Shown piece after piece: positions 3,399-23,827 of a stretch of DNA of 32,796 nucleotides. This stretch comes from Actinomycetota bacterium (lineage in GTDB: Bacteria; Actinomycetota; Actinomycetes; S36-B12). The position numbers and the translations under genes are program-made. The DNA is taken from positions 1-32,796 of the forward strand of contig JBEGLG010000113.1 in NCBI GenBank assembly GCA_041183645.1. Direction: 5' to 3'. The notes under the pieces were generated by a model that was given only the letters and a program-made list of their open reading frames with translations, had not been told where the DNA came from and made no database searches. Every line of letters begins with the position of its first letter. The first letter of the stretch is position 1.

Positions 3399-5561
3399 TC
3401 AGGGAGTCGGTGTCGACGCTGACGCGGCTTCGACAATGGCGTCCGCGACGCCGGGCTCGAGCAGGAGTGAGCCCTCGAGGCTCAGGTGGGTCTCGTCCTG
3501 ATAGAACACGACGCCATCCTTGGCCGTCGCGCACGTCGTTCCGTCGCAGACATAGGGAAGGGCATCGAAGATCACGGTGCCGGGGTACTTCGCGGCGACC
3601 GCGGTCTCGGCGTCGAGTGCGGGCTTGCGATGGGCGATCGCCTCGGCCTCGTCGAGTGTGTAGGCCTTCGACCCGAATGCCTGCGCGAAGATCGAGTGCT
3701 GGTCGACGAACTCCGGGAACTCAGGCACGGCACCGATGATCACGACACCGATGCCCGCAGCGCGAAGCGGAGCCACGACATCGTCGATTCCCTGCTTCCA
3801 GAGCTTCGCTGCCTCGGATGTCGAGCCCGCCATGCCGCCGCTCTTCGTGGCCGCCGTGCGCCACCTGATCTCGGGATGCACGTAGCCGGCCGAGCGATTC
3901 GCGATGACCACCACTGCGGGCTTGGTGTCGAGTGCGAACTTCAGTGCGGACTTCTGCCAGGCGCGGCAGGGGTGATCATGCGAGCCACTCGATTCGCGTC
4001 CGAGGAAGGGGCAGCCCGTGTTGCTCGAGACGAAGGTGCGATAGCCGAGTTTCTCGTCAGCGGCGATGACCGCATCGGCAAGGGCGTAGGCCTGCGAGTC
4101 GCCGAGCATCAGCACGGTGGAGGTACCGGTGCCGAAGCTGCAGGTGGCGGGAGCGATGTCGGTGTTCACGCATCCGCGCGCGACTGCAGCATGCTGATTG
4201 CGCAGGTCATTGGTCGTGGTGTCTGCGGTGACCGCCTCGCCATCGCTGACGGCAGTGGTGGCCGGTGCCGCCGGTGCGCCATCGCCCGTGGCGACGCTCG
4301 CGCTCGACGCGACGGGCGACGCGGCCCCCCAGTGCTGATTCGCGCCGACGAGGAGCCCGATGCACAGGGCGAGCGGAAGACCGCTGGTGGCGAGGATGAC
4401 CAGCGCGCTGCGCACGCGGGTGCGAGGCCGAAGTGCGCGCATCGGCTGCTCGAGGAAGCGATAGGAGAGCAGTGCGGGAATGAGGGATCCGGCCGCGGCA
4501 GCGACAAGGACCCACGGCTGACTCGGCCAGATCACGCCGGCGAAGACGATCAGCGGCCAGTGCCACAGGTACCACGAATACGAGATGTCGCCGATGAACG
4601 TGAAGGGGCGCCAGGCGAAGGCGCGGCTCACCATGGTGTCGCCCTGGGATCCCGCCCCGATGATCAGGCACGTGCCGACGACGGGGAGAAGGGCGAGCCA
4701 TCCCGGGAACGGCATCGAATCATTGATGCCGAATGCGGCGTAGAGCACGAGTGCGACTCCGAGGAAGCCGCCGAGCTCACGCCACTTATGCGCAATGTCG
4801 GGCATGCGAGCAAGGGCCAGTGCGAGCAGGGCGCCGATGCCGAACTCCCATGCGCGAGTGATCGGGGAGTAGAAGGCGAAGGTCTGCGCGCCGCCGAAGA
4901 ACGACGTCATGCCCTCGAGGAGGCCACTGCCGAATGTCCAGGCAATCGCGAGTGCGAAGGATCCTGCGGTCACGAGCAGGACGATCAGGAAGGGCAGTCG
5001 TAACGGTCGGCGGGCTCTGCGACCGAGATACCAAGCCAGGATCAGCAGACCGGGGAAGACGAGATAGAACTGCTCCTCGACCGAGAGCGACCAGGTATTG
5101 AGCAGCGGGTTGTGCACTGCTCCGGCGGCGAAGTAGTCGCCTGCCGCATGACCGATCACGAAGTTGGCCGACAGGAGCAGTGCGCCGATGCCGGTGGCGG
5201 CGGTGGTCTGCTGGTCTCCGTAAGGGCCTTGCAGGAAGAAGGAGCCGATCGCGACGACTCCCACGACAAGAGCCAGGGCGGGGGTCAGCCTCAGGAAGCG
5301 ACGGAAGTAGAAGGTGCCCATCGCGATCCGGCCTGTCTGTGCCCGCTGCCGCAGGAGCATGGCGGTGATCACGAAGCCCGAGATCGCGAAGAAGACGTCG
5401 ACCCCGGTGAAGCCCCCGGACACCGGGAGCCGGGCATGGAAGAGCACGACCAGGGTGACGGCGAGGGCACGCAGGCCCTGGATATCCGGGCGCCGGGAAC
5501 TGCGCTCGCCCATGGGCAGGGCAGAGATCGGGTCCGGGGAAGCCACGGGCCTATCTTCCAC
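3399..5561 (-). CDS. Acyltransferase-3 (OafA/YrhL-type) membrane O-acyltransferase fused to a C-terminal SGNH hydrolase-like domain
   Basis: DIQGLRALAVTLVVLFHARLPVSGGFTGVDVFFAISGFVIT is the acyltransferase-3 N-terminal signature. About 10 TM segments, an Ala/Ser/Thr-rich linker, then LMLGDSQAYA (SGNH block I). GTG start at 5561; internal ATG at 5513 is an alternative. Confidence 0.8.
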   Translation of the reverse strand: MEDRPVASPDPISALPMGERSSRRPDIQGLRALAVTLVVLFHARLPVSGGFTGVDVFFAISGFVITAMLLRQRAQTGRIAMGTFYFRRFLRLTPALALVVGVVAIGSFFLQGPYGDQQTTAATGIGALLLSANFVIGHAAGDYFAAGAVHNPLLNTWSLSVEEQFYLVFPGLLILAWYLGRRARRPLRLPFLIVLLVTAGSFALAIAWTFGSGLLEGMTSFFGGAQTFAFYSPITRAWEFGIGALLALALARMPDIAHKWRELGGFLGVALVLYAAFGINDSMPFPGWLALLPVVGTCLIIGAGSQGDTMVSRAFAWRPFTFIGDISYSWYLWHWPLIVFAGVIWPSQPWVLVAAAAGSLIPALLSYRFLEQPMRALRPRTRVRSALVILATSGLPLALCIGLLVGANQHWGAASPVASSASVATGDGAPAAPATTAVSDGEAVTADTTTNDLRNQHAAVARGCVNTDIAPATCSFGTGTSTVLMLGDSQAYALADAVIAADEKLGYRTFVSSNTGCPFLGRESSGSHDHPCRAWQKSALKFALDTKPAVVVIANRSAGYVHPEIRWRTAATKSGGMAGSTSEAAKLWKQGIDDVVAPLRAAGIGVVIIGAVPEFPEFVDQHSIFAQAFGSKAYTLDEAEAIAHRKPALDAETAVAAKYPGTVIFDALPYVCDGTTCATAKDGVVFYQDETHLSLEGSLLLEPGVADAIVEAASASTPTP

Positions 5562-5611
5562 CCCCGACCATGAGGGCTGACACCGTCCTCAGGCCGGGCC
5601 CAGGGATGGTC

Positions 5612-5631
5612 GGTGGGACGAAGGTCCCGAG
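5612..5631. promoter_or_regulatory. Candidate DosR/DevR-type operator (GGGAC-N4-GTCCC) upstream of cydA
   Basis: GGTGGGACGAAGGTCCCGAG compared with the M. tuberculosis DosR consensus TTSGGGACTWWAGTCCCSAA. Both pentamer half-sites are perfect with correct 4-nt spacing, about 15/20 overall. It lies 84 nt upstream of the cydA ATG. TATTCG (5654-5659) and TTGACT (5637-5642) are nearby promoter-like hexamers. Confidence 0.55.
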
Positions 5632-5711
5632 AAGTGTTGACTCTTGCCGCGTGTATTCGGTGCGTACCCCCAGGAGTATGGAATCGCTGAATACCAACGA
5701 AGGGTCAGATC

Positions 5712-7118
5712 ATGGGTGCGCTCGATCTCGCACGCTGGCAATTTGCCATCACCACCGTCTATCACTTCCTGTTCGTGCCGCTCACCCTCGGAACCGTCTG
5801 GTTCGTCGCGGGCTTCCAGACGGCTTACGTGCGAACCGGCAAGGAGAAGTACCTCAAGCTGACGAAGTTCTTCGGGAAGCTCTTCCTGATCAACTTCGCC
5901 ATGGGCGTGGTGACCGGCATCGTGCAGGAATTCCAGTTCGGCATGAACTGGTCCGAGTACTCGCGCTTCGTGGGCGACGTCTTCGGTGCCCCGCTTGCGA
6001 TGGAGGGCCTGCTCGCCTTCTTCCTCGAGTCGACCTTCATCGGCCTATGGATCTTCGGCTGGGATCGACTGCCGAAGAAGGTGCATCTCGCCACCATCTG
6101 GGCAGCGGCGATCGGCACGATGCTCTCGGCCTACTTCATCCTCGCGGCCAATGCCTGGATGCAGCATCCGGTCGGCTACGAGATCAGCGCCACCACCGGT
6201 CGCGCTGTCCTGAACAACATCGGTCTCGTGCTCTTCCAGAACACCGCGGTCATCGCCTTCTTCCACACCATCTCTGCGTCCTTCCTCGTAGCGGGCTCCG
6301 GCGTTGCCGCAATCGGCGCCTGGATGCTGATGAAGGATCGCCAGGTCGACATCTTCCGTCCCGCGGTCAAGATCGGCGCTGTCGTCGTCCTGCTCTCTGC
6401 AGTGGTCGTCTCGATCACCGGTGACATGGACGCCAAGATCATGGTGAAGCAGCAGCCGATGAAGATGGCGGCGGCTGAGGCGCTGTACAACACCACTGAC
6501 AAGGCGCCCTTCTCGATCCTGAGCATCGGCGATGTCTCCGGTTCGAGCGCGACTCCCGTGATCGAGGTGCCTGGCCTGACCTCGTTCATGGCCACCGGCT
6601 CCTTCGACGGCAATGTGCAGGGCATCAACGATCTGCAGGCGCAGTACGAGCAGACCTACGGCCCGGGCAACTACGCGCCCTACGTGCCGGTCAGCTACTG
6701 GGGCTTCCGCCTGATGATCGGCCTGGGCCTCATCGCCGCGGCGTGGGCGCTCTGGGCGCTGTGGCGCTACCGCGGCGGTCGCAATCCGAAGAGCAGGCTC
6801 TTTAACGTGATCAGCATGTTCATCACGCTCGGCCCTCTCGTCGGAATCTCCGCCGGCTGGATCTTCACCGAGATGGGACGTCAGCCCTGGATCGTGTTCG
6901 GCCAGCAGAAAACCGCTGATGCGGTGTCACCGCTTGTCTCGCCCGCTGAGGTGTGGATCTCGATGATCGGCTTCACGCTGGTCTACCTGGTTCTCGCCAT
7001 CATCGAGCTGCGCCTGCTGCTGCGCTACATCCGCGCGGGCGCCCCGGAGAACGTCATCGAGGATCCGTATGACGACTCCAAGAACGACGCCGACAAGCAG
7101 CTCTACTTCGCGTACTGA
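5712..7118 (+). CDS. cydA: Cytochrome bd ubiquinol/menaquinol oxidase subunit I
   Basis: N-terminus LARWQFAITTVYHFLFVPLTLG is the CydA signature (heme b558 His region). 468 aa (short Q-loop type). GAAGGG SD. Followed by cydB. Confidence 0.95.
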   Translation: MGALDLARWQFAITTVYHFLFVPLTLGTVWFVAGFQTAYVRTGKEKYLKLTKFFGKLFLINFAMGVVTGIVQEFQFGMNWSEYSRFVGDVFGAPLAMEGLLAFFLESTFIGLWIFGWDRLPKKVHLATIWAAAIGTMLSAYFILAANAWMQHPVGYEISATTGRAVLNNIGLVLFQNTAVIAFFHTISASFLVAGSGVAAIGAWMLMKDRQVDIFRPAVKIGAVVVLLSAVVVSITGDMDAKIMVKQQPMKMAAAEALYNTTDKAPFSILSIGDVSGSSATPVIEVPGLTSFMATGSFDGNVQGINDLQAQYEQTYGPGNYAPYVPVSYWGFRLMIGLGLIAAAWALWALWRYRGGRNPKSRLFNVISMFITLGPLVGISAGWIFTEMGRQPWIVFGQQKTADAVSPLVSPAEVWISMIGFTLVYLVLAIIELRLLLRYIRAGAPENVIEDPYDDSKNDADKQLYFAY

Positions 7119-7139: not shown

Positions 7140-8234
7140 ATGGAACTCGTAACTGTCTGGTTCATCCTGATCGCCGTGCTGTGGATCGGATACCTCGTCC
7201 TCGATGGCTTCGACCTCGGTGTCGGAATGCTCCTGCCCTTCCTCGGGAAGGACGACCTTCGCCGTCGAGTCATGATCAACACGATCGGCCCGGTGTGGGA
7301 CGGCAATGAGGTGTGGCTGCTCGTCGCGGGAGGAGCGACCTTCGCGGCCTTCCCGCTCTGGTACGCCACGCTCTTCAGCGGCTTCTACCTGGCGCTCTTC
7401 CTGCTGCTGCTCGCGCTCATCCTGCGTGGCGTGGCATTCGAGTACCGCAGCAAGCACGACTCGGTGAAGTGGCGCGCAGGCTGGGACAAGGCGATCTTCG
7501 TCGGCTCCGTTCTTCCACCGCTGCTCCTCGGCGTTGCCTTCGGCAACATCTTCGGCGGTTCGAAGATTGGTCCGATCGCCGGAACCGCGGCGGACTTTCC
7601 GCTCGCGACCGATGCAGGACCGATCAACTACCTCGGCAACTTCTTCGACCTGCTGCTCAACCCCTTCGCACTCGTGGTCGGCGTGATGCTCGTGCTGGTC
7701 TTCGCCACGCATGGCGCGATCTTCCTGGCCCTGAAGACAAGCGGTGAGGTGCGCGAGGCCTCGCGCAAGGCTGCCGTCAAGGTGGGCGTGGCCGCGGCCG
7801 TGTTCGCCGTGGTCGGCCTGCTGTGGGCTCAGGCCTACTCCGGTCGCGTGGCCATCACGCTGCCGATCGTGCTGATTGCCGCAGTGCTCTGGCTGGCCGG
7901 TATCGGCATGACCCTCAAGGGTCGCGATGGCTGGGCCTTCCTGTTCAGTGCCGGCACCATCGCCCTGGCGGTCACGGCACTGTTCGTCGGGGCATTCCCG
8001 AACATCATGCTCAGCAGCATCGATTCCGCGTTCAACCTCACGGTGCACAACTCGGCAAGCCAGTCGTACACGCTGACCGTGATGACCATCGTCGCGGTGA
8101 TCATGACTCCGATCGTCCTGATCTACCAGGGCTGGACTTATTGGGTGTTCCGCAAGCGCATCAGCACCTCGCAGATCCCTGAGCAGTCAGCGCCGGGCCG
8201 TGCGGACGACCGATTCGCGGCGGCGAAGGGGTAG
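7140..8234 (+). CDS. cydB: Cytochrome bd oxidase subunit II
   Basis: MELVTVWFILIAVLWIGYLVLDGFDLGVGMLLPFLGK...GPVWDGNEVWL is the typical CydB N-terminus. 21 nt after cydA, with a GAGGAA SD. Confidence 0.93.
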   Translation: MELVTVWFILIAVLWIGYLVLDGFDLGVGMLLPFLGKDDLRRRVMINTIGPVWDGNEVWLLVAGGATFAAFPLWYATLFSGFYLALFLLLLALILRGVAFEYRSKHDSVKWRAGWDKAIFVGSVLPPLLLGVAFGNIFGGSKIGPIAGTAADFPLATDAGPINYLGNFFDLLLNPFALVVGVMLVLVFATHGAIFLALKTSGEVREASRKAAVKVGVAAAVFAVVGLLWAQAYSGRVAITLPIVLIAAVLWLAGIGMTLKGRDGWAFLFSAGTIALAVTALFVGAFPNIMLSSIDSAFNLTVHNSASQSYTLTVMTIVAVIMTPIVLIYQGWTYWVFRKRISTSQIPEQSAPGRADDRFAAAKG

Positions 8235-8310: not shown

Positions 8311-9978
8311 GTGAGACCCCTGGATCCCCGACTACTGCGATATGCCCGCAGCACTCGCGGGTTCATGGTCGCCGCGGTGCTGCTGGGCGTGGTCACGGCG
8401 ATCCTCGTGATCCTTCAGGCACGAGCGCTCTCCACCGTCATTGTCGATGTCACGGCGCATGGCTTCTCCCTCTCCGAAGTGGGTGGCCTCGTTCTCGCCG
8501 TCGCTGCCCTGATGGGTGCACGGGCGGTGCTCTCCTGGGCGACCGAGATCGCCGCCTTCCGTTCCGCCGCGGCGGTGAAGGAGGAACTGCGCACTGCGGC
8601 TCTCACCCACGCCCTGGCGCTGGGACCGAATGGGCCTGCAGGCACGGATCCGGCCGGGGTCACCACGCTGGTCACGCGCGGAGTCGATGCGCTCGATGCC
8701 TACTTCTCTCGCTATCTGCCGCAGCTCGTGCTCGCCGTGATCGTGCCGATCACGGTGCTGCTCACCCTGCTCGGCCAGGACATCCTCTCGACGGTGATCG
8801 TCGCGATCACGATCCCGCTCATCCCGCTCTTCATGATTCTCATCGGCATGTACACCAAGAGCCGGGTCGATCGACAGTGGAAGACGCTCGCGGTTCTCAG
8901 CGGGCATTTCCTTGACCTGGTCGCGGGCCTGCCGACCCTGAAGATCTTCGGCCGGGCGAAGTCACAGGCGGAGGCCATCGCGGCCGTCGGCGATCGCTAC
9001 CGCTCGTCGACCATGGGCGTACTGCGCATCTCCTTCCTCTCCTCGCTCGCGCTCGAACTCCTGGCCACGCTCTCCGTCGCACTCGTGGCGGTCTCGGTCG
9101 GCCTGCGACTCGCCGAGGGGCAGATGGCCTACGGCGTCGCGCTCTTCGTGCTGCTCCTCGCACCCGAGGCGTACCTTCCGCTTCGACTCGTCGGTCAGCA
9201 CTTCCATGCGGCGGCAGAAGGACTCGGCGCGGCGGAACGCATCTTCGCAATTCTCGAGACGCCACTCCCGAGCGACGGCGGAGTCGAGATGCCCTCGGGT
9301 GCCGTGACGATTGACGTCACTGAGCTCGGCTACACGTATGCGGGCCATGATGAGCCGGCACTCGCCCCGACAACCTTCACGGCTCAGCCGGGCACGGTCA
9401 CCGCACTTGTCGGGCTATCCGGTGGCGGCAAGTCGACTCTCATCAATGTCCTGCTGGGCTTTCTTGCCCCGACCACGGGCGACGTGCGAGTCGACGGCAG
9501 CTCACTCGCGGAGATCAGCAGCAGCTCGTGGCGATCCTCGATCGGCTGGGTGCCGCAGTCGCCCGTCCTGATCGCCGACGATCTCACGGAGAATCCGACG
9601 ATCGCGCAGGTCGTGCGTCTGGGCACGCCTGACGCGACGGATTCCGAAGTGCGCACCGCCCTCGCAGATGCGGGCCTAGCCGCGGAGATCTCCGCGCTAC
9701 CGCTCGGGCTCGATACTGCGCTGAATTCCGATGGAAGCGGACTCTCCCGCGGCCAGCACCAGCGCCTCGCGATCGCTCGTGCCCTGGTGCGCCGGCCGCG
9801 CGTGCTGCTCCTTGATGAGCCGAGCGCTGCTCTTGATACCGAGTCGGAGGATGCAGTGGTGGCCGCTGTCTGCGCTGCAGCCGCTCGCGGCTGCACGGTG
9901 ATCGTGGTCGCGCACCGACCGGCACTCGTCGAGATTGCCGATCAGGTCGTGCGCGTGGGAGCGGGGGTACTCGCATGA
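8311..9978 (+). CDS. cydD: Thiol-reductant ABC exporter subunit CydD (TMD-NBD half transporter)
   Basis: Six-TM domain followed by Walker A GLSGGGKST, signature LSRGQHQRLAIARAL and Walker B LLLDEPSAALD. GAGGAG SD 9 nt before the GTG. Position directly after cydAB. Confidence 0.9.
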   Translation: MRPLDPRLLRYARSTRGFMVAAVLLGVVTAILVILQARALSTVIVDVTAHGFSLSEVGGLVLAVAALMGARAVLSWATEIAAFRSAAAVKEELRTAALTHALALGPNGPAGTDPAGVTTLVTRGVDALDAYFSRYLPQLVLAVIVPITVLLTLLGQDILSTVIVAITIPLIPLFMILIGMYTKSRVDRQWKTLAVLSGHFLDLVAGLPTLKIFGRAKSQAEAIAAVGDRYRSSTMGVLRISFLSSLALELLATLSVALVAVSVGLRLAEGQMAYGVALFVLLLAPEAYLPLRLVGQHFHAAAEGLGAAERIFAILETPLPSDGGVEMPSGAVTIDVTELGYTYAGHDEPALAPTTFTAQPGTVTALVGLSGGGKSTLINVLLGFLAPTTGDVRVDGSSLAEISSSSWRSSIGWVPQSPVLIADDLTENPTIAQVVRLGTPDATDSEVRTALADAGLAAEISALPLGLDTALNSDGSGLSRGQHQRLAIARALVRRPRVLLLDEPSAALDTESEDAVVAAVCAAAARGCTVIVVAHRPALVEIADQVVRVGAGVLA

Positions 9979-11765
9979 GCCCGGTGAGAGAACTGTGGAA
10001 GGCCATGTCGGCGCAGCGCACCGAACTGGCGCTCGCGGCATTCGTCGGATTCCTGGCGTCGGCCTCGGCCATTGCACTACTCGGTACGTCGGCCTGGCTT
10101 ATCTCGCGCGCCGCGGAGATGCCGCCGGTGCTGACCTTGAGCGTTGCCGCGGTCATGGTGCGCGCGTTCGCTCTGGGGCGAGCAGTGTTCCGCTATCTCG
10201 AACGCCTACTGGGGCACGATGCGGCATTCCGAGGGCTCTCGCAGCTTCGTGTCAGCCTCTACCGAAGCCTCGAGGCGATCACGCCGAACGGACTCGCGCA
10301 ATTCACCCGCGGCGATCTCATCTCGCGGTTGGGTGCCGATGTCGACACCGCTGTCGACCTGCCGCTGCGCATCGTTCTGCCCTGGGCGCAAGCGATTCTC
10401 GTGTCGATCGGCACGGTGGCATTCCTCCTCTGGCTGTTGCCGACGGCCGGTGTCGTGATCGGCATCGTCGTGCTGCTTGCGCTGACCGTGATGCCCTGGC
10501 TGGTCGGTCGCACCGCCGCGCACGCCGAGGCTCGACTTGCGCCGGGCAAGGCCGCACTCGCGAATGCAGTGCTCGCCTCGCTCACTGCCTCCCCCGACCT
10601 GCTCGTGCTCGGCGCCGATCGGCCCGCGCTGGCAGCCGTGCATGCGCATGACGAGCGCGTGACCTCTCTCGGTCGACGTGAGTCGGTTGCCCTGGGACTG
10701 AGCGGAGGCACCGGCACGCTCTTCCAGGGGCTCGCCGTCGTGGCAGCACTCGTCATCACCATTCCCGCCGTGATCGACGGTCGACTGCCGGCGGTGATGC
10801 TCGCCGTCGCGGCACTTCTTCCGCTCGCACTCTTCGATGTGCTGCAGACCCTGCCGGGCTCCGCACTCGCCTTCCATCGACTTCGCGGGGCCGCGGCACG
10901 CCTGGCCGAGATACACGAGGCGCCGGCCGATGACTCCGCTCAGGCGACGGGTCGACCGGGCGAGTTCACCGGCCTTGTCGTCGACAACCTCCGCGCACGA
11001 TGGTCGGGCGCTGAGGGTGATGCGCTCGCGGGAGTCTCACTCAGCATCGCCCCAGGTGAGCGCATCGCGATCGTCGGACCGAGTGGCTCCGGGAAGTCGA
11101 CCCTCGCGACTGTCCTCATGGGATTCCTCAAGTACGACGGCAGCGCGGTCACGTGCGGCTCCGAGATTCGAGCCCTCGACGGCGACGACCTGCGCGAGCG
11201 AATCGGAATGATGGAGCAGAGCTCGCATATCTTCGACACCACCATTGCCGCGAACCTCCGGCTCGGTCGTCTCGATTCCACCGATGCCGAGGTGTGGGCG
11301 GCTCTCGAGGAAGCGCAACTGGCCGAGTGGGTGCGCGGTCTCCCGCTCGGCCTCGACACGGAGGTCGGCGCCTTCGGCACCCGACTCTCGGGCGGTCAGC
11401 AACAGCGGCTCGCCCTGGCACGCCTTCTGCTCGCGCAGCGCGAACTCGTCATCCTCGACGAGCCGACCGAGCACCTCGATGCCCAGACCGCGGAGCAACT
11501 CGATCGCACGCTGTTCGCGGCCACCGCCTCGCGCACAGCGATCCTCATCACTCATCGCCTGGTCGGTCTCGAGGCCGCTGACCGCATCTACGTACTCGAC
11601 GGCGGCCGAGTGATCGAGCACGGCACGCATGAGGCACTGATGAGTCGCGATGGCTGGTACGCCGCCGCCCGGCGTCGTCAGGATGAGCAGCGCAGCATGG
11701 CAGAGCTCATTGACGTGCTTCCCGTCGGAATCGGCGTGCCCGTGCCCCCGCTCGCGAGAGGATGA
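9975..11765 (+). CDS. cydC: Thiol-reductant ABC exporter subunit CydC
   Basis: ATGA start/stop overlap with cydD (9975-9978). Walker A GPSGSGKST, signature LSGGQQQRLALARLL, Walker B VILDEPTEHLD. Confidence 0.9.
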   Translation: MSPVRELWKAMSAQRTELALAAFVGFLASASAIALLGTSAWLISRAAEMPPVLTLSVAAVMVRAFALGRAVFRYLERLLGHDAAFRGLSQLRVSLYRSLEAITPNGLAQFTRGDLISRLGADVDTAVDLPLRIVLPWAQAILVSIGTVAFLLWLLPTAGVVIGIVVLLALTVMPWLVGRTAAHAEARLAPGKAALANAVLASLTASPDLLVLGADRPALAAVHAHDERVTSLGRRESVALGLSGGTGTLFQGLAVVAALVITIPAVIDGRLPAVMLAVAALLPLALFDVLQTLPGSALAFHRLRGAAARLAEIHEAPADDSAQATGRPGEFTGLVVDNLRARWSGAEGDALAGVSLSIAPGERIAIVGPSGSGKSTLATVLMGFLKYDGSAVTCGSEIRALDGDDLRERIGMMEQSSHIFDTTIAANLRLGRLDSTDAEVWAALEEAQLAEWVRGLPLGLDTEVGAFGTRLSGGQQQRLALARLLLAQRELVILDEPTEHLDAQTAEQLDRTLFAATASRTAILITHRLVGLEAADRIYVLDGGRVIEHGTHEALMSRDGWYAAARRRQDEQRSMAELIDVLPVGIGVPVPPLARG

Positions 11766-13469
<1,704 letters not shown>

Positions 13470-13482
13470 GAGTGCGTGCGAA

Positions 13483-14025
13483 CTAGCCGACAGGCTGCAT
13501 GCGCTGCGCGATCTTCACGAGCTCATTCGCGCCGATGGCATGACCCTTCAGGGTCTCGATCCAGATCTGGGTCGGGCGAAGACCGTTGCCTCCCGAGGGG
13601 AAGATCACCGAGAGGTGACCGCCCCATGTGGCGACATCCTTGGCAGTGCAGTTGTTTGCCGGTTCCGGGCAGTAGGCCTCGATGACTGCCTTGGCACCCT
13701 TGATCCTGGTCGTGTAGACCGTGCGTCCGTTGCCGATGTCGCGGCAGATCGGATTGCCCTCGGTGATGCTGAACTGGCGACCCTTGCTTCCGCCGTACGT
13801 CGTATCGAGTGCGAGCTCGGCGGAGCAGAGGGCATCGGGCTGCATGTTGCCGAAGCTGGTCTGCTTCAGGCCATTCGTGTAGGTCGGCTGGTACACGGTG
13901 TACGTGACACCGACCTGATGATCGGCGTAGTTGTTACCGGAGCCCATGGCATGCGCAGGAACGGCGGCGAATGCGGTGAGGCCGAGAACGGCCGACGCGG
14001 CGAGGGCGAGAACGCTCTTCTTCAT
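13483..14025 (-). CDS. Small secreted protein, function unknown (DUF4367-like by eye)
   Basis: Signal peptide MKKSVLALAASAVLGLTAFAAVPAHA. 4 Cys. VTYTVYQPTYTNGL and C-terminal ELVKIAQRM resemble DUF4367-type proteins. AGGAG SD. 8 nt downstream of the response-regulator gene. Confidence 0.6.
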   Translation of the reverse strand: MKKSVLALAASAVLGLTAFAAVPAHAMGSGNNYADHQVGVTYTVYQPTYTNGLKQTSFGNMQPDALCSAELALDTTYGGSKGRQFSITEGNPICRDIGNGRTVYTTRIKGAKAVIEAYCPEPANNCTAKDVATWGGHLSVIFPSGGNGLRPTQIWIETLKGHAIGANELVKIAQRMQPVG

Positions 14026-14033
14026 GGTGCTCC

Positions 14034-14690
14034 TTAGTTGCGGTGTTCTGACTCGACGGCCATTCGGGCGGCGAGGGCTGCTGCTTGGGTACGACGTTCC
14101 ATGCCGAGCTTGGCGAGCAGGCTCGACACGTAGTTCTTGACGGTCTTCTCGGCCAGGTGCATGGTCTCGCCGATCTGGCGATTGGTGAGGCCGTCGCCGA
14201 TGAGCCCGAGAATGCGGCGCTCCTGGTCGGAGAGTCCGTCGAGGCGATCGTCATGATGCTCGCCCTGTCGCAGCCGCTCGAGCACGCGCTGAGTGGCCGC
14301 GGGATCGAGGAGCGACTTCCCGGCCGCCACCTGGCGCACGGCATCGACGAGGTCATTGCCGCGAATCTCCTTGAGCACGTACCCCGAGGCGCCCGCCATG
14401 ATCGCATCGAAGAGTGCCTCATCGTCGGCGTACGACGTGAGCATCAGGCACTTGACCTCGGGCATCTGCGAACGGATATCGCGGCAGACCTCGACTCCGG
14501 TTCCGTCGGGCAGGCGCACGTCGAGGACGGCAACATCGGGACGTGCAGCGGGAATGCGCGTGAGGGCCTCGGACTTGGAGCCGGCCTCACCCACGACAGT
14601 CATGCCCTTCTCCAGGCCGATCAGGTCGGCGATTCCGCGTCGCACGACCTCGTGGTCGTCGAGCAGGAATACGCGAATGTCATCGGCCAT
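14034..14690 (-). CDS. devR: NarL/LuxR-family response regulator, DosR/DevR-like
   Basis: [19 protein letters not shown]...[17 protein letters not shown] (receiver, phospho-Asp in VLDV). C-terminal [40 protein letters not shown] matches M. tuberculosis DosR ([27 protein letters not shown]), including the DNA-contacting K-x-x-K-N. Confidence 0.9.
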
Positions 14691-14704
14691 GGGTTGATTG
14701 TGCC

Positions 14705-15484
14705 TCAGGGAGTGACGGCGATGTCGGACAGCAGCCGCACGGCGAGGTCAAAGTCACCATCGATGCGCACCCGTGAACGCCAGCCGGTGTCGTCGACCCC
14801 GACGCGCCCGCAGGCGCGGGCGAAGAAGTCGGGCCAGGTCATCGAAATGGTGGTGACCTCCGGGGAGTGGCCGAGGGAGATGACCTCCCCGATATCGGAG
14901 AGCTCGAGGCGAATCGAGTCAGCAGGGCCTTTCGCAAGGGAGGACCAGGCGTGCTCGGTGCCGTCGATGAGCTGGCCCCGCACCACGCTCGCCGCGAGGG
15001 AATCCCATCCCTCGTCGATGCCCAGGGCCATGCGGATGTCCTGGAGGTGTACCCAGGAATCGAGGATTCGTCGGCTCAGCTGACGGCCCAGCGGGGTCTC
15101 CTTCCCGAAGAAGCCGGGGACGAGCGCCTCGAGATCATGGGGACCCGCCTCGATCTGGGCCATGCGTCGCGCGGTGGTCTCGCGCAGTTCGGCCACGACC
15201 TCGGATTGCGGTCGACCTCGGCGGGCATCGACGCCGACTTCGGTGAACCTGCTGAGGTCGCGATCGACCCACGGCATGGACTCCCAATACGGCTGGTGAT
15301 CAGGTCGCGGATCACCGAGCAGAACCTGCTCGATGTCGACGATGTGAGCCACCATGTCGGCGACAGTCCAGCCCTCGCATGCGGTCGGGGTCGACCACTG
15401 CACGGCGCTCACTCGGGATCCGAGGTCAGCCGCATCGTCGAGCACGCCTCGGTCAATGGCCACGAGCTCATCGAAGGTCGTCAT
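14705..15484 (-). CDS. Mycothiol-dependent maleylpyruvate-isomerase-family (DinB-fold, TIGR03083-type) protein
   Basis: [27 protein letters not shown] is the typical N-terminal DinB/MDMPI metal-binding region. Start placed at ATG 15484 (MTTFDELVA...), not 15541, because 15541 would overlap the divergent gene and 15484 is preceded by TACGCT-N6. Confidence 0.7.
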
Positions 15485-15490
15485 GCTCTC

Positions 15491-15496
15491 AGCGTA
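15491..15496 (-). promoter_or_regulatory. -10-like TANNNT box (TACGCT) 6 nt upstream of ATG 15484 (leaderless-type promoter)
   Basis: Minus strand reads TACGCT-GAGAGC-ATG. No SD is possible. Spacing matches the actinobacterial leaderless architecture. Confidence 0.45.
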
Positions 15497-15506
15497 GTTC
15501 GCGTCA

Positions 15507-15512
15507 TAGGCT
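15507..15512 (+). promoter_or_regulatory. -10-like TANNNT box (TAGGCT) 6 nt upstream of ATG 15519 (leaderless-type promoter)
   Basis: TAGGCT-CGTCGT-ATG, with no SD. Mirror image of the box for the divergent gene, 10 nt away. Confidence 0.45.
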
Positions 15513-15518
15513 CGTCGT

Positions 15519-16322
15519 ATGGGAACTCGGGTGGCACTCATTCAGCTGCGCTGCGACTCGGCCGAGCCCAGGGCCGAGCGCATCGAGCGGGCCTTCGCGA
15601 TGGTGCGCGACGCCGCAGCGCGTGCCGACCTCATCGTGCTTCCTGAGCTCTGGAGCACCTGCGCCTTCGACCTCCCGGCGGCCCGCGAGGGTGCCGAGCC
15701 CATCGACGGCCCGCTCGTCACCGCACTCGCCTCACTCGCATCCGAGCTCGGAGTCTGGATCCACGGCGGCTCATTCGCTGAACTCGTCGATGAGTCCACG
15801 CGGCACAACTCATGCGTGCTCTTCGATCCAGAGGGCACCCGTGTCGCGACATATCGCAAGATCCATCTCTTCGGCTTCGCCGAGGGAGAGCGCACGGTGA
15901 TGACCGGCGGCGAGGAGCTCGTCGTCGTCGACACTCCGCTCGGCACGACCGGTCTGGCCACGTGCTACGACCTGCGCTTCCCCGAGCTGTTCCGGGCGCT
16001 CACCGACTCGGGTGCCACGGCCTTCCTGGTGTCCTCGGGCTGGCCGCTGGCGCGCATCGAGCACTGGGATGTCCTGACGCGGGCTCGTGCGATCGAGGAT
16101 CAGGCGTGGGTGATCGCGTGCAATGAAGTCGGCACGCAGGGCAGCGATGGAGTGGTGCTCGGCGGCCATTCGGTCGTCATCGATCCGCGCGGCGCGGTCA
16201 TCGCGCAGGCCGGCGAGAGCGAGGAGATCCTCTACGCCGAGATTGATCCACAGGAGCCCGGTCGCTGGCGCGAGGCATTCCCGGCACTTGCCGATATTCG
16301 TATCGGTACCGACCGGGGCTAG
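15519..16322 (+). CDS. Carbon-nitrogen hydrolase family protein (nitrilase/amidase superfamily)
   Basis: Catalytic triad contexts LIVLPELW (Glu), YRKIHLF (Lys) and GLATCYDLRFPELF (Cys). Confidence 0.85.
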   Translation: MGTRVALIQLRCDSAEPRAERIERAFAMVRDAAARADLIVLPELWSTCAFDLPAAREGAEPIDGPLVTALASLASELGVWIHGGSFAELVDESTRHNSCVLFDPEGTRVATYRKIHLFGFAEGERTVMTGGEELVVVDTPLGTTGLATCYDLRFPELFRALTDSGATAFLVSSGWPLARIEHWDVLTRARAIEDQAWVIACNEVGTQGSDGVVLGGHSVVIDPRGAVIAQAGESEEILYAEIDPQEPGRWREAFPALADIRIGTDRG

Positions 16323-17119
16323 TCGACGGCGAGCGCGGAGGCGCTGCCGATCACGATGACGGGATGCTTCGCGAGGTCGAGCCAGTCCATGACGTGACGC
16401 ATGGCTGACTCATCGATCGAGATGCACCCGGCAGTGGGCACGCCTTTGGATACGTGCAGGAAGATTCCGCCGCCTGCACGCGTGTTAGCCGGCACGCTCG
16501 CATGGCGTATGCCGCGCGCATCGGTCGTGATAACTCCCGTCGGAGCGTTGTAGTCGAGCACTGCCACGTAGTCGTACTGCCGGCCGAGTTTCCACAGATG
16601 CTCGACATATCGCCCGTATGACGACCAGCTCACGGGTGCCGACTGGAAGAGGTTGTACGTGCCGGGTACCCGAGGGTTGTAGGTCCAGGCGTCGTTGGTG
16701 TCGATCTGCACGTAGGGAAGTGCCGTGCCGGGATTCGGCAGGCGTCCGAATGCCGACGTGATGGCATACGTGCCGGCCGGGGTCGTGTTGGTGCTCTGAC
16801 GACGTCGATCGCCGGCGACGATGCCGCGTGCGCCCACGAAAGCGGGTACGTCCTTCTCTATCGCCACCCAGTGACCGTCGGCCGACTTTTCATAGGCACT
16901 CAGTCGCGCGCGCGTGGAGTGATAGTCGGTGCTGGTCACGATGATGACCTGCTGCGCGGACGAGGCGCCGGGAAGATCGCCCGGTGTTGCGGCGGACGCC
17001 TGCGGCGCCAGCACGACTGCCGTGGCGAGAGCGACGAGTGCAGCAGTGGCTCTAGCGAGTGTCACGCTCGGCCAGTCGCGCCAGTCGATCGTTGTAGGCA
17101 TTGAGCTCGGCGTCGCCAT
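16319..17119 (-). CDS. L,D-transpeptidase (YkuD-fold) family protein, secreted
   Basis: GGGIFLHVSKGVPTAGCISID is the His...Gly-Cys catalytic motif. Signal-like ATAALVALATAVVLAPQASA. Start is uncertain: ATG 17185, 17161, 17119 or 17101, or GTG 17065. All overlap the 3' end of the upstream gene (stop at 17052). Confidence 0.7.
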   Translation of the reverse strand: MATPSSMPTTIDWRDWPSVTLARATAALVALATAVVLAPQASAATPGDLPGASSAQQVIIVTSTDYHSTRARLSAYEKSADGHWVAIEKDVPAFVGARGIVAGDRRRQSTNTTPAGTYAITSAFGRLPNPGTALPYVQIDTNDAWTYNPRVPGTYNLFQSAPVSWSSYGRYVEHLWKLGRQYDYVAVLDYNAPTGVITTDARGIRHASVPANTRAGGGIFLHVSKGVPTAGCISIDESAMRHVMDWLDLAKHPVIVIGSASALAVD

Positions 17120-19031
17120 CGCGATCGGCCTGGCGATCCTTGCGCTTGGCCTCGCGATCATCACTGCGCGACCACTGGAAGGCAATGGCGAGGAGCACGA
17201 TCATGCTCGGGATCTCGGCAATGCCCCAGGCCACCTGACCGCCGTTGAGCGAGTCGGCGAGCGGATCGGTGATCCAGTCGGGTCGCACGATTCCGTACCA
17301 CTCGGGTGCGATCGGAGTCGTGCCCATCATCAGGATCACGGCGAAGAACGCATGCACCGACATCGACAGCAGGAGCAGGAGTAGGCGACCCCAGTACGGC
17401 AGTGGCTTCGGTCGGGGATCGATTCCGATGATCACCCAGTAGAAGAGGTAGCCGGAGAGCAGGAAGTGGGCCTGCATGACGATGTGACCGACATGGCTGC
17501 CCATGAGCCAGCCGAATGCCGGAGTCAGGTAGAGGCCGTAGAGGCCGAGGACGTAGACGACGAACACGTAGAACGGGTTCGTGAGAATGCGCGTGATCCA
17601 GCTGTGCAGGAACCACAGGAGCCACTCACGCGGGCCGCGCTCAGGCCCTGTCGAGGGCTTGAGGGCGCGCAGCGCCAAGGTGGCCGGTGCGCCCATGACG
17701 AGCAGGATCGGCGCGAGCATGGTGAGCACCATGTGCTGGAGCATGTGCATGCCGACACTGACGCTCGCGTACATCGAGATACCGCCATTGGTGCACCACA
17801 GCACGACGATCAGCCCGAGGAACCAGCTGATCGAGCGACCGATGGGCCACGCGGCTCCGCGCTTGCGCAGCCGCATGAGTCCGCCGAAGTACAGCGCCCC
17901 GGCGATGAGCACCATGGTGAAGAAGAAGGGCTCGAGATGGAAGCCTCCGAGTACCGACGATGCGGTGGGCGCTTCGGGATACCGATAGCCGAGCAGCGAC
18001 TCTCCGTAGGAGGGAAGCTCGACGGTCAGGCGAGGCGGAGCACTCTGCGACAGCGCGACACCGAGGCCCAACGCGATCGCCATGACAGTGAGTTCGAGTC
18101 CCGCGATGCGGGCGAAGATTGATCGACCGGACTTCGTGCCCGTGGTGGCGGTGATTCGGCGGCGGATCAGCAGGGCGATCACGCCGAGTACCACGATGAG
18201 AGCAGTCTTGATGAGCACCAGCTGCCCGTAGCCCGTCGTCAGGATCTGACCGAGGGTCTCCAGGCGCGTGTACGCATTCGCGATACCGCTGACGGCAAGC
18301 AGCGCCAGGCAGCTGCCCGCGATGATGCCGAAACGCTGGATCGAGCGCCTGAGCGGAAGGTCACCGCGCACGGCATGCAAGGCAAGCGCCAGCAAGCCGC
18401 CGATCCACAAGGTGGCAGCGGCGATGTGGGCCGCCCCGGCTGTCATCGCCAGCGCATGATCGCCGAGCCCCGCGGCATGACCGCCGAGTGCCGGAAGCAC
18501 CGCAGCGAGCAGGGCGAGAATTAACCACGCGGCCCCGGATCCGACCGTGAAGGTTGCCGCGCAGGCGGCGCACACCACGAGGGCCAGGATCGCCATCCCG
18601 AACAGGGCTCGCGTGGTCGGCAGGTCGAAGGCATACGTGGTGAGCACATCGGGACTCAGCGCCTCGGAGAACTGCAGGCCGAGAACATTGCCGACCACGA
18701 ACACGCTCTGCGCGAGCGCGAGAAGTGCCCAGATGAGAGCTGCGACGGCGGCACGCACGAGATCGGTGCGCCCTGCGCGCGAGACCGTGCCGTCCTTCCC
18801 GGATGGATCGAGTACCACCGCCGCGAGCAGGAATCCGATGGTGACGACCGCGGCAATGTCAGTGAGAGTGCGCAGGACAGGGGTGCCCCAGCCGATGACT
18901 GCGCCGACATCGGGAATCCCGACAGGGGGAGCGGCGTACTCGCTGCCGCTCACCACGAGGCCCACGGCCATGGCCGCGACCGCCAGCACGATCAGTGCGG
19001 GGGCGAGCAAGGCGAGCGGTGAGCGCTTCAT
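17052..19031 (-). CDS. Bifunctional CopD-like copper-resistance / cytochrome c oxidase assembly (caa3 CtaG-type) membrane protein
   Basis: 659 aa with about 16 TM segments. The N-terminal half is CopD-like and the C-terminal half is CtaG_caa3-like (MHMLQHMVLTMLAPILLVMGAP, FLHSWITRILTNPF, HFLLSGYLFYWVIIGIDP). Size and architecture match the common actinobacterial fusion. Confidence 0.75.
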   Translation of the reverse strand: MKRSPLALLAPALIVLAVAAMAVGLVVSGSEYAAPPVGIPDVGAVIGWGTPVLRTLTDIAAVVTIGFLLAAVVLDPSGKDGTVSRAGRTDLVRAAVAALIWALLALAQSVFVVGNVLGLQFSEALSPDVLTTYAFDLPTTRALFGMAILALVVCAACAATFTVGSGAAWLILALLAAVLPALGGHAAGLGDHALAMTAGAAHIAAATLWIGGLLALALHAVRGDLPLRRSIQRFGIIAGSCLALLAVSGIANAYTRLETLGQILTTGYGQLVLIKTALIVVLGVIALLIRRRITATTGTKSGRSIFARIAGLELTVMAIALGLGVALSQSAPPRLTVELPSYGESLLGYRYPEAPTASSVLGGFHLEPFFFTMVLIAGALYFGGLMRLRKRGAAWPIGRSISWFLGLIVVLWCTNGGISMYASVSVGMHMLQHMVLTMLAPILLVMGAPATLALRALKPSTGPERGPREWLLWFLHSWITRILTNPFYVFVVYVLGLYGLYLTPAFGWLMGSHVGHIVMQAHFLLSGYLFYWVIIGIDPRPKPLPYWGRLLLLLLSMSVHAFFAVILMMGTTPIAPEWYGIVRPDWITDPLADSLNGGQVAWGIAEIPSMIVLLAIAFQWSRSDDREAKRKDRQADRDGDAELNAYNDRLARLAERDTR

Positions 19032-19063: not shown

Positions 19064-20899
19064 TCAGAAGGAGTCTTCGGCCAGTTCCATGACGTCGAGG
19101 GTGGTGGCCTCGGCGACCGCGCGTTCGCCTGAGATCAGGGGCAGTCGATTGCGCGCGAACCACCGTGCGGTCTCGATCTTGCCCTCGTAGAACAGGCGAT
19201 CGCGCTCGGAGACCTCGCCCTTCAGCGCTCGCTCAGCGACCTCGGCCTGGCGCAGCAGCAGCCAGCCGATCATGAGGTCGCCGGAGGTCATGAGCAGGCG
19301 CGTGGTGTTGAGGCCGACGCGGTAGATCTCCTGTGAGCTCGCCTGCGCCGCCATGGCCCACTGGCCCATGACTCCGACGATGGCCTGGACATCCTCGAGT
19401 GCCTTGCCGAGCAGCTCGCGCTCGACAGCGAACTTGCCTGAGCCATCGTCGCCCTTGACCGTCTCGGTGATCTGCGTGGCAATGAAGAACAGTGCCTTGA
19501 ACTGATCCTTGACCATCTTGCGGAAGAAGAAGTCGAGACCCTGGATAGCGGTCGTGCCTTCGTACAGCGTGTCGATCTTGGCGTCGCGGATGTACTGCTC
19601 GGCGGGATAGTCCTGCAGGAAGCCACTGCCGCCGTAGGTCTGCAGCGCCACGGCGAGCATCTCGTACGAGCGCTCGGAGCCGACACCCTTGACGATCGGC
19701 AGCATGAGGTCGTTGATGCGTACGGCCATGTCGAGATCGATGTCGGCATTGCCGGCCTCGCCCATCTCGATCATGTCCTGCCAGTAGGCGGTGTAGGCAA
19801 TGAGTGCGCGCATGCCCTCGGCATACGACTTCTGCAGCATCAGGCTGCGGCGCACATCGGGGTGATGGGTGATGGTCACCCGGGGGGCCGTCTTGTCCAT
19901 CTGCATCGTCAGATCAGCACCCTGCACACGAGTCTTCGCATACTCGAGTGCATTGAGGTATCCGGTCGAGAGCGTGGCTATGGCCTTGGTGCCCACCATC
20001 ATGCGCGCGTACTCGATCACCTTGAACATCTGCGCGATGCCATCGTGCACATCGCCGATCAGCCAGCCGATGGCCGGCTCCTTCTCGCCGAAAGTCATCT
20101 CGCAGGTGGTCGAGACCTTCAGGCCCATCTTCTTCTCGACGTTGGTGGCGTAAACACCGTTGCGTCCTTGAATTTCACCGGTCTCGAGATCGACGAAGTA
20201 CTTGGGCACCAGGAAGAGCGAGAGTCCCTTGGTACCCGGGCCGGCACCTTCGGGACGAGCGAGAACGAGATGCACGATGTTGTCGGTCATGTCGTGCTCA
20301 CCGGAGGTGATGAATCGCTTGACGCCCTCGATGCGCCACGTGCCATCGCCGTTGTCGAATGCCTTCGTGCGACCGGCACCGACATCGGATCCCGCATCGG
20401 GCTCGGTGAGCACCATCGTGGCGCCCCAGCCGTTGTCGATCATCAACTGGGCCCAGCGCTTCTGGTCGGCATTGCCGAGGCTGTCGACGATGCTGGCGAA
20501 GCCGGGGCCTGACATGAACATGAACGCGGCGGGGTTGGCGCCAAGCAGGAGCTCGCTGGCTGCCCAGCGCAACGACGGCGGAGCGCCGGTGCCGCCAAGG
20601 TGCTCGGGGAGATCGAGGCGCCACCACTCGGAGTCCATCAGCGCGGCGAAGCTCTTCTTGAAGCCCTCAGGCATGACGACTGTCTTGGTCGCAGGGTCAT
20701 AGATCGGAGGGGTGCGGTCAGCCTCGGCGAAGGATTCCGCCAGCGGGCCGGTGGCCAGGCGATCGACCTCGTGGAGGATCTCGCGGGCGGTGTCGACGTC
20801 CATCTCGGCGTACGGGCCCGAGCCCATGCGCTCTCCGGCTCCGAAGACCTCGAAGAGGTTGAACTCGAGATCGCGGACATTGCTTTTGTAGTGGGACAT
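19064..20899 (-). CDS. fadE: Large acyl-CoA dehydrogenase, FadE5-like
   Basis: [18 protein letters not shown]..., [55 protein letters not shown] and [18 protein letters not shown] closely match M. tuberculosis FadE5 (Rv0244c) from memory. Start set at the second ATG (20899), which gives a 6-nt spacer from GAGGA and the MSHYKS N-terminus. The ORF-track ATG at 20905 is 2 codons upstream. Confidence 0.9.
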
Positions 20900-20917
20900 C
20901 GCCATTCCTCAATCGTG

Positions 20918-20933: not shown

Positions 20934-21021
20934 AACATGATGCCCCCCTTTGGTTGCCATTGCAAGCGCTCTGGGCACGGACGGAGCTGGCGTTGCCCCA
21001 AGCGTCGGGAACAATGTCCCC

Positions 21022-21501
21022 ATGACCGCGTCGTGGAGCACCTCGGTGACCCCCGTGGCTCCGCCGCGCGCGGCTAACCCGCGACTTCGCTTCCTTATCT
21101 ATGCAGCCACCGTCACCGGCATCTGGTCCGGCCTGCTCTGCCTGCTGGTTTTCGGCATCGGCCACCTCGCCCACGTGAGCTTCGTAGTCGAGCAGCCCGA
21201 CGGCTCCCTGGCACCGATCAGCTGGCTGGCTGTCTTGCTCGTGCCGCTGCTGGTTGCCTACGTGGCGGCCCTGCTGTCGGCCCTGCTGCGCGGGCGAGCG
21301 CACGGCGGCCGCATTGTCTTCTGGCTGGGCACCGTGCTGGCGATTGCCAGTGCCTACGGACCGCTCTCCCAGCCCATCGGCTGGTCATCGCGTGTCCTGC
21401 TGCTGATCATGCATGCGATCACCTGGGCACTCGTGGTGCCGCAGCTCGCGCGCATCGTGGGCGATTCCGAACCGGGGGCATCCGTTGACCGCAGTGAGTG
21501 A
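21022..21501 (+). CDS. Small 4-TM membrane protein of unknown function, first cistron of the DPA operon
   Basis: MTASWSTSVTPVAPP... followed by four hydrophobic helices. No PAP2 or other catalytic motif seen. Its stop overlaps the next gene's GTG (GTGAGTGA). Start could instead be TTG 20950. Confidence 0.55.
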   Translation: MTASWSTSVTPVAPPRAANPRLRFLIYAATVTGIWSGLLCLLVFGIGHLAHVSFVVEQPDGSLAPISWLAVLLVPLLVAYVAALLSALLRGRAHGGRIVFWLGTVLAIASAYGPLSQPIGWSSRVLLLIMHAITWALVVPQLARIVGDSEPGASVDRSE

Positions 21502-22396: not shown

Positions 22397-22397
22397 C

Positions 22398-23792: not shown

Positions 23793-23827
23793 TCGTACTC
23801 ACCGCATCACCAACTCAGGGAGATCAC

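Follow-up and report, generated by a model that had tools for sequence, protein, structure and literature searches.

A palindrome upstream of the cytochrome bd operon cydABDC, in a 32,796-bp stretch of DNA from an Actinomycetota bacterium (contig JBEGLG010000113.1; the whole stretch is hereafter called the window), is very likely a functional DosR-family operator for that operon and for the sensor-kinase gene that follows it. The core of the palindrome, termed P, is GGGACGAAGGTCCC at positions 5615–5628, and it lies inside the 20-mer GGTGGGACGAAGGTCCCGAG at 5612–5631. P is probably the high-affinity primary operator of a tandem pair of DosR/DevR-type sites that would activate the cydABDC promoter, and the complete mechanism, in which the regulator encoded nearby occupies both sites in tandem, is reasonably probable as well. 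DosRST is a much-studied gas-sensing system, almost entirely as the dormancy regulon of Mycobacterium tuberculosis. Cytochrome bd tolerates low O2, nitric oxide (NO), carbon monoxide (CO) and H2S, which are largely the signals sensed by DosS/T. What is new in the window would be the target and the wiring; the regulator and the motif are well known, and the promoter architecture would be like that found in M. tuberculosis.

Both strands of the window were searched for the exact pattern GGGAC-N4-GTCCC, and P was the sole match. An earlier, sequence-only reading of this DNA had called it the only such palindrome in the window, had placed it (as GGGAC-GAAG-GTCCC) at 5615–5628, and had put it 84 nt ahead of the cydA ATG; all of this agrees with the sequence. 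P is located within the 198-bp gap upstream of cydABDC (5514–5711), and 84 nt is the distance from its last base to the A of the cydA start codon (5712). Dinucleotide-preserving shuffles of the window contained a mean of 0.06 exact matches, with at least one match in 5 of 100 shuffles. A DosR matrix was built from the M. tuberculosis consensus TTSGGGACTWWAGTCCCSAA and scanned over the window. P received a score of 13.1 (background tail p 4e-6) and ranked second; the top two matches, of which P is one, were both intergenic. Core matches with up to two mismatches were not enriched window-wide (21 observed vs 27 expected), and the counting of weak sites across the window was dropped for this reason. 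Because loose matches are not enriched, the statistic from this window is only suggestive, and the strong evidence is comparative.

Two sets of relatives were used for the comparison. The genome set comprised the loci of the 80 best CydA matches, of which 79 were counted and none was from Mycobacterium; the second, independent set comprised 77 metagenome loci around CydA homologues. Individual loci are cited by number where they must be told apart. A locus was scored as carrying a box if a core with no more than one mismatch was located between −200 and −30 relative to cydA. By this measure, 22 of the 79 genome loci had a box (5 exact), vs 1.2 (0.07 exact) in shuffled upstream regions; elsewhere in the same loci the rate was 0.008 boxes per equivalent stretch. 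The metagenome set gave 20 of 77 (4 exact) vs 0.86 expected. The boxes were positioned 60–135 nt before the cydA start codon, and the 21 unique 20-mers among them yielded S-GGGAC-(C/T)-W-W-R-GTCCC-S, i.e. the M. tuberculosis DosR consensus. Carriers included both of the closest relatives, Micromonospora, Actinoplanes, Asanoa and Catellatospora, and further Aeromicrobium, Nocardioides, Nakamurella and Actinospica; in Amycolatopsis and Pseudonocardia, tandem pairs of two-mismatch boxes were found upstream of cydA. The sequence-only reading had tied a DosR-type operator to cydA and had proposed, as a check, that the box be sought upstream of cydA in relatives that carry the kinase/regulator pair. 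This check was run, the box was conserved, and the tie to cydA was borne out by that conservation.

The nearest CydA proteins were 76% identical in the genome set (two metagenome-assembled genomes, L001 and L002) and 68% identical in the metagenomes; the lineage of the window is therefore poorly sampled. Between the window and L001/L002, the flanking DNA was not alignable apart from three invariant islands: the core of P, the GAC..GCCG of a second box (S, below) and the AG-AT of a candidate −10 element. The half-sites are kept while the N4 spacer varies, a pattern that favors a protein-binding site over an RNA hairpin. A search with the regulator described below located the same organism in four metagenome contigs (L161–L164), none of which reaches the cydA upstream region.

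The candidate secondary box S (TTGACTCTTGCCGC, 5637–5650) lies 22 bp downstream of P, measured between centers. It has mismatches at 4 of the 10 core positions and retains the G and C of each half-site, i.e. all four essential positions; in M. tuberculosis, G5 and C7 of each Dev half-site are essential for DevR binding (PMC3177182). L001 and L002 have the same layout, which consists of the same P, 8 nt, a second box of the form xGAC-N4-GCCGx at the same +22 offset (CGGACCGTTGCCGG in L001, CGGACTCACGCCGC in L002), 22–23 nt, and (A/C)AG(G/A)AT. The spacing was analyzed over 23 loci that have a good box. At an offset of +22, every one of the four essential G/C positions was kept in 22% of these loci, and at +24 in 35%; at other offsets the figure was 0–4% nearly throughout, the exceptions being −22 to −24 (9–17%) and −35 (13%). 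A second box 22–24 bp downstream of the best box was present in 13 of the 23 loci, the two closest relatives included. In 19 of the 23, a hexamer of the form xAxxxT started 30–32 nt after the center of the proximal box, which places that box at about −42.5/−43.5. The −10-like hexamer in Micromonospora is TAGTAT. The corresponding hexamer in the window, GAGTAT (5674–5679, plus strand), starts 31 nt after the center of S, following a 23-nt gap, and aligns with AAGGAT in L001 and CAGAAT in L002. Judged by the tandem and hexamer spacing in relatives, P would be centered near −64.5 and S near −42.5, overlapping the −35 region, and the transcription start site (TSS) of cydABDC and the kinase gene is predicted near 5686 (5685–5687, plus strand), 7 nt downstream of the candidate −10. 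A scan of 5450–5760 for consensus sigma-70 promoters and terminators found none.

One feature of the Micromonospora loci was noted in the same region. Between the proximal box and the cydA start, eight of them (L014, L026, L027, L035, L038, L050, L058 and L061) share a strongly conserved CTACGAC-N6-7-GTAGTATTTACTACGTCTCGTAGTA. Its inverted repeats extend over the candidate −10 (TAGTAT) and into the leader, and the stretch may serve as a second operator or form a structure in the leader RNA that is peculiar to Micromonosporaceae.

A two-component system is encoded beside the operon. The kinase gene (11769–13469, plus strand; 566 aa) starts 3 nt after the cydC stop codon and is therefore probably the last gene of the cyd operon. 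Its product has the Pfam architecture GAF-GAF-HisKA_3-HATPase_c and resembles the heme-GAF sensors DosS and DosT; its GAF-A domain is 63% identical to that of DosT (2vzw, E 5.5e-54) and 59% identical to that of DosS. Alignment to the DosT/DosS structures identified His107 (AGHPVM) as the proximal heme histidine and Tyr129 (NLYLT) as the distal tyrosine, and showed that the H-box histidine, His377, is present. The counterparts in DosS are H149 and Y171. The position of DosS Glu87 is occupied by Gly, as in DosT. The regulator gene (14034–14690, minus strand) is convergent with the kinase gene and located about 0.6 kb further on. It encodes a 218-aa DosR/DevR-like response regulator of the NarL family (Response_reg PF00072 and GerE PF00196). 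In HMMER it was matched to M. tuberculosis DevR (PDB 3c3w) with 63% identity over 206 aa (E 4.5e-82); the next-best PDB match was VraR (6e-41). Asp57 aligns with the DevR phospho-acceptor Asp54. The claim that the recognition helix is identical to that of M. tuberculosis DevR, made earlier from the letters, was upheld by the alignment to 3c3w, and Lys179, Lys182 and Asn183, which we take from the DosR–DNA structure to be the DNA-contacting residues, are conserved. On the strength of the kinase and regulator similarities, the local two-component system is taken to be a genuine DosS/T–DosR homologue.

In the mechanism proposed, the heme-GAF kinase would sense low O2, NO or CO and autophosphorylate on His377, and the phosphate would pass to Asp57 of the regulator. 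The phosphorylated dimer would bind the perfect box P, and a second dimer would be recruited cooperatively to the degenerate box S, which overlaps a poor −35 region. RNA polymerase would in turn be recruited to the promoter with GAGTAT as its −10, and transcription would start near 5686. The transcript would span cydA, cydB, cydD, cydC and the kinase gene; because the kinase gene would be part of the induced transcript, the bd oxidase and its sensor would both rise, a positive feedback.

The linkage of cyd to this type of system was found repeatedly among the relatives. The kinase gene follows cydC, with a convergent regulator gene, in the window and in L002, L004, L018 and L022, and the adjacency of cydC and the kinase was also seen in about 20 Streptomyces loci. 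In Amycolatopsis (L006, L011 and L013) the regulator gene is divergent from cydA and the boxes lie in the shared gap, and in L064, L081/82, L131, L141, L144 and L159 the kinase and/or the regulator is encoded upstream of cydA. Nearly all loci with an adjacent regulator had a box with no more than two mismatches upstream of cydA; the exceptions were L022, whose box has three mismatches, and L018, where a Rex operator was found in place of the box. In L029 and L159, additional exact boxes precede the kinase genes. Further exact GGGAC-N4-GTCCC palindromes within 10 kb of cyd were noted in L159 (403, 4976 and 7417), L144 (13454) and L131 (16162), and L006 has two exact boxes 35 bp apart (21294–21342). 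This clustering suggests that other DosR-regulon genes neighbor cyd in those genomes.

Several observations weigh against reading P and S as a tandem operator of the local regulator. S is weak: with its four mismatches it would not be called alone. The missing consensus promoter fits an activator-dependent promoter but backs no particular −10. In L001 (9958–10003), the candidate −10 AAGGAT ends only 7 nt before the annotated cydA ATG, a spacing that implies a leaderless cydA mRNA despite the presence of a Shine-Dalgarno-like GAAGGA, with which the hexamer shares bases. The DosR-matrix scan revealed no strong box ahead of the regulator's own operon; the regulator is thus apparently not autoregulated, while the kinase is. 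The loci are phylogenetically related (about 10 are from Micromonospora), and the counts given above overstate the number of independent events. Finally, L001, the closest relative, carries the box although neither member of the pair is encoded within 10 kb; box and pair thus need not be neighbors, and the gene for the binding protein could lie elsewhere.

This last point bears on an alternative that we consider improbable, namely that the box is functional and is bound by a DosR-family paralogue encoded elsewhere while the local pair controls something else. L001 is not alone: in many loci from Micromonospora, Actinoplanes and Nocardioides, too, the box is present and neither kinase nor regulator is encoded within 10 kb. 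In addition, actinomycetes often have several DosR/DosS paralogues (SCO3948, close to OsdK, is an example). Yet the recognition helix of the local regulator is the same as that of DevR, the kinase gene directly adjoins cydC, the cyd locus carries the pair repeatedly and in three arrangements across lineages, and the loci with an adjacent regulator have, with the exceptions of L018 and L022, a box with at most two mismatches. A different geometry, also unlikely, was part of the sequence-only reading, in which TATTCG (present at 5654–5659) served as the −10 and P was centered near −44. A single box would then suffice, with P itself promoter-proximal (about −44.5) and the TSS near 5666. The arithmetic is correct, the usual proximal position of a DevR box is −42 to −44 (PMC3177182), and the best box is the proximal one in loci of the Actinoplanes type (L005, L012, L025 and L050). 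TATTCG, however, does not end in the T expected of a −10 hexamer, and neither L001 nor L002 has kept it; in 13 of the 23 loci the conserved xAxxxT follows the downstream box by 30–32 nt, not the best box; and DevR-activated promoters of M. tuberculosis need at least two boxes (PMC3177182). The proposal of TATTCG is therefore not supported. The class-II-type activation that went with it survives in part: a site overlapping the −35 region is still likely, but that site would be S rather than P.

It is very improbable that the regulator acts as a repressor that blocks the cyd promoter, or that it controls the divergent acyltransferase gene. The latter is an AT3/SGNH acyltransferase open reading frame on the minus strand (3399–5561); its start is probably near 5513, because homologues align from residue ~21, which reduces the gene to 3399–5513. 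The box does lie between two divergent genes, at a distance of about 108 nt from this likely ATG, and DevR is able to drive divergent promoters, such as tgs1-Rv3131 (PMC3177182). Nevertheless, the box accompanies cydA among relatives that differ in their upstream neighbor (the acyltransferase gene is more than 1 kb away in L001 and L002), no xAxxxT at a matching distance was seen by eye on the minus strand, and the phasing of −42.5 and −64.5 upstream of the −35/−10 elements is the geometry of an activator. The least probable account is that P arose by chance or is a hairpin, in RNA or DNA, that serves no regulatory protein. An exact match did occur in 5 of the 100 window shuffles, and a GC-rich stem of 5 bp could fold. 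Conservation largely refutes this account: boxes are in roughly 20-fold excess upstream of cydA in two independent locus sets, and the half-site sequence is conserved rather than covarying, with a variable N4 spacer. Moreover, the box is upstream of the predicted TSS and lacks a T-run, and the terminator scan of 5450–5760 was empty.

Operators of other redox regulators were sought at the same promoter. For the Rex operator TTGTGAA-N4-TTCACAA, there was no site with five or fewer mismatches in 5514–5711 and none with three or fewer window-wide. For CRP/GlxR (TGTGA-N6-TCACA), the region upstream of cydA in the window had no site besides the DosR box itself, which, when read one base out of register, was the only match with three or fewer mismatches (it has three). 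In Streptomycetaceae, the best match upstream of cydA was a Rex operator, and the DosR box was not found; Rex operators were located 40–115 nt upstream of cydA in L018, L055, L066 and L074 (e.g. CTTGTGAATCAATTCACAAG and ATTGTGAACGCATTCACAAG). These comparisons point to the exchange of one redox regulator for another at a shared promoter in the Streptomycetaceae lineage. Fourteen Streptomyces loci (L046, L049, L052, L056, L057, L059, L060, L062, L065, L067, L070, L074, L076 and L079) encode, directly after cydC at about 16.2–18.2 kb, a DosS/DosT-like GAF kinase that is 46–48% identical to the kinase of the window. Neither a nearby regulator gene nor a DosR box ahead of cydA was found in these loci, and the linkage of cyd to the kinase seems to have outlived the operator in Streptomyces. 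Judged by its position, this kinase is probably of the SCO3948 type. In four Kribbella loci (L037, L039, L041 and L043), a conserved sequence, CACGTGACCAGT(A/G)TAACTAC, at about −71 to −96 from cydA replaces the DosR box.

The predicted promoter resembles the class I promoters of M. tuberculosis DevR (tgs1-Rv3131, hspX) in its GGGAC-N4-GTCCC core, in the pairing of a conserved primary box with a candidate secondary box that is degenerate and lies about two helical turns off, and in a proximal box predicted at about −42.5. The proteins are likewise similar, given a regulator with 63% identity and an identical recognition helix and a kinase with a DosT/DosS-like heme GAF-A domain. Three differences stand against these likenesses. 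The predicted target here is the cytochrome bd operon, the kinase gene is at the 3′ end of that operon rather than after dosR, and no strong box precedes the regulator gene, unlike the autoregulated dosR of M. tuberculosis. To our knowledge, cydABDC is not among the roughly 48 genes of the M. tuberculosis DosR regulon, and, from the literature and general knowledge, we know of no such box upstream of cydA in Mycobacterium. DosR regulon papers on M. abscessus and M. avium contain neither “cyd” nor “cytochrome bd”. The Dev box is a palindromic site of 18–20 bp. DevR promoters of M. tuberculosis have two or more such boxes side by side and in helical phase, with about 21–22 bp between centers (−42.5 and −63.5 are one example), and the conserved primary Dev box nucleates cooperative binding to poorly conserved neighbors (PMC3177182).

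Outside mycobacteria, OsdK/OsdR of S. coelicolor are orthologues of DevS/DevR and recognize DevR-like sites, and SCO3948 is an uncharacterized orphan kinase close to OsdK (PMC5069765); that paper mentions neither cyd nor cytochrome. The system in the window is like OsdK/OsdR in being a DosR-type system of a non-mycobacterial actinomycete, and Streptomyces also has a DosS-like kinase after cydC/cydCD; unlike the window, Streptomycetaceae have a Rex operator and no DosR box upstream of cydA. For S. avermitilis, PMC5355995 reports that Rex controls cyd. The Rex/ROP case is comparable in that cydABCD is controlled in response to redox state or oxygen through a palindromic operator about 40–115 nt upstream of cydA, but Rex is an NADH-sensing repressor with another motif. 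According to PMC7739888 and PMC7337898, CRP (MSMEG_6189) activates cydAB in M. smegmatis and HrrA acts in C. glutamicum. Like the arrangement proposed here, those cases are of an activator on which the bd oxidase of an actinobacterium depends for its induction when respiration is inhibited or oxygen is scarce; they differ in their regulators and motifs. In M. smegmatis, CO induces the dos regulon as well as cytochrome bd, and the two are treated as separate responses (PMC8125079). In the literature that could be searched, actinobacterial cyd control is attributed to CRP, Rex, HrrA (Corynebacterium) and RegX3 or PrrAB (mycobacteria). The sequence-only reading had called the arrangement a different wiring from that of M. 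tuberculosis, and this agrees with the searchable literature, which never assigns actinobacterial cyd control to DosR. No link between DosR/DevR and cyd was found there, though an earlier prediction in some non-mycobacterial genome is possible.

From the conserved boxes, this actinomycete and many of its relatives probably switch on their high-affinity oxidase via DosR. A DosR operator pair on the operon, with the kinase gene in it, would allow the cell to sense respiratory poisoning or hypoxia and then switch its oxidase. The interest lies in the breadth of the cyd–DosRS linkage across Actinomycetota, since control of the bd oxidase may be an old core role that suggests what DosRST did before its recruitment for dormancy. 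Tentatively, and with more doubt than confidence, cyd control may go back far, perhaps to the ancestor, as a core function of DosS/T–DosR across Actinomycetota, with the kinase gene built into cydABDC as a feed-forward loop; the cyd-less dormancy regulon of M. tuberculosis and the Rex-controlled cyd of Streptomyces with its orphan kinase would then be derived rewirings. The comparison also offers a hypothesis for the cyd-linked orphan kinase of Streptomyces (SCO3948-type) and points to a lineage-specific swap of redox regulators (DosR, Rex or CRP) at one promoter. These proposals are testable in culturable Micromonospora, Actinoplanes, Amycolatopsis or Nocardioides.

The genes of the operon were assigned as follows. 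cydA (5712–7118, plus strand) encodes cytochrome bd subunit I (Pfam PF01654 Cyt_bd_oxida_I, E 2.3e-162) and is preceded by a Shine-Dalgarno-like GAAGGG at 5699–5704, read from the sequence. cydB (7140–8234, plus strand) encodes subunit II (Pfam PF02322, E 1e-108). The two ATP-binding cassette (ABC) transporter genes, cydD (8311–9978, plus strand) and cydC (9975–11765, plus strand), both have ABC_membrane and ABC_tran domains; the position of cydD after cydB is conserved, and the cydD and cydC reading frames share 4 nt. A gene for a 180-aa protein (13483–14025, minus strand) with a signal-peptide-like N-terminus and no Pfam family separates the kinase gene from the regulator gene and is immediately downstream of the latter on the same strand; it has the same position in the contigs of the same organism (L161–L164). 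The regulator gene is preceded, with a 14-nt gap, by a mycothiol-dependent MDMPI/DinB-family gene (14034–15541 for the two, minus strand), and because of this short gap the two are probably co-transcribed.

The best DosR-matrix site in the window was not P but GTCGGGAACAATGTCCCCAT at 21004–21023, an intergenic site with a score of 14.2 and one core mismatch. It is located about 108 nt upstream of a FadE5-like acyl-CoA dehydrogenase gene (19064–20905, minus strand), and its end is 2 nt ahead of the ATG (21022) of a gene for a DUF6069 membrane protein. No clear tandem box or −10 was seen when its flanks were read by eye. The site may mark a second member of the regulon, or it may be in a repressor position for DUF6069. 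Elsewhere in the window (21413–24595 and 17052–19031) is a cluster of genes for a UbiA prenyltransferase, an FAD/ALO oxidase and a short-chain dehydrogenase, and a CopD–CtaG fusion (cytochrome oxidase assembly) is encoded near it. We take the cluster to resemble the decaprenyl-phosphoribose/arabinose genes (UbiA-DprE1-DprE2), a likeness that may point to a cell wall with arabinan in this uncultured lineage.

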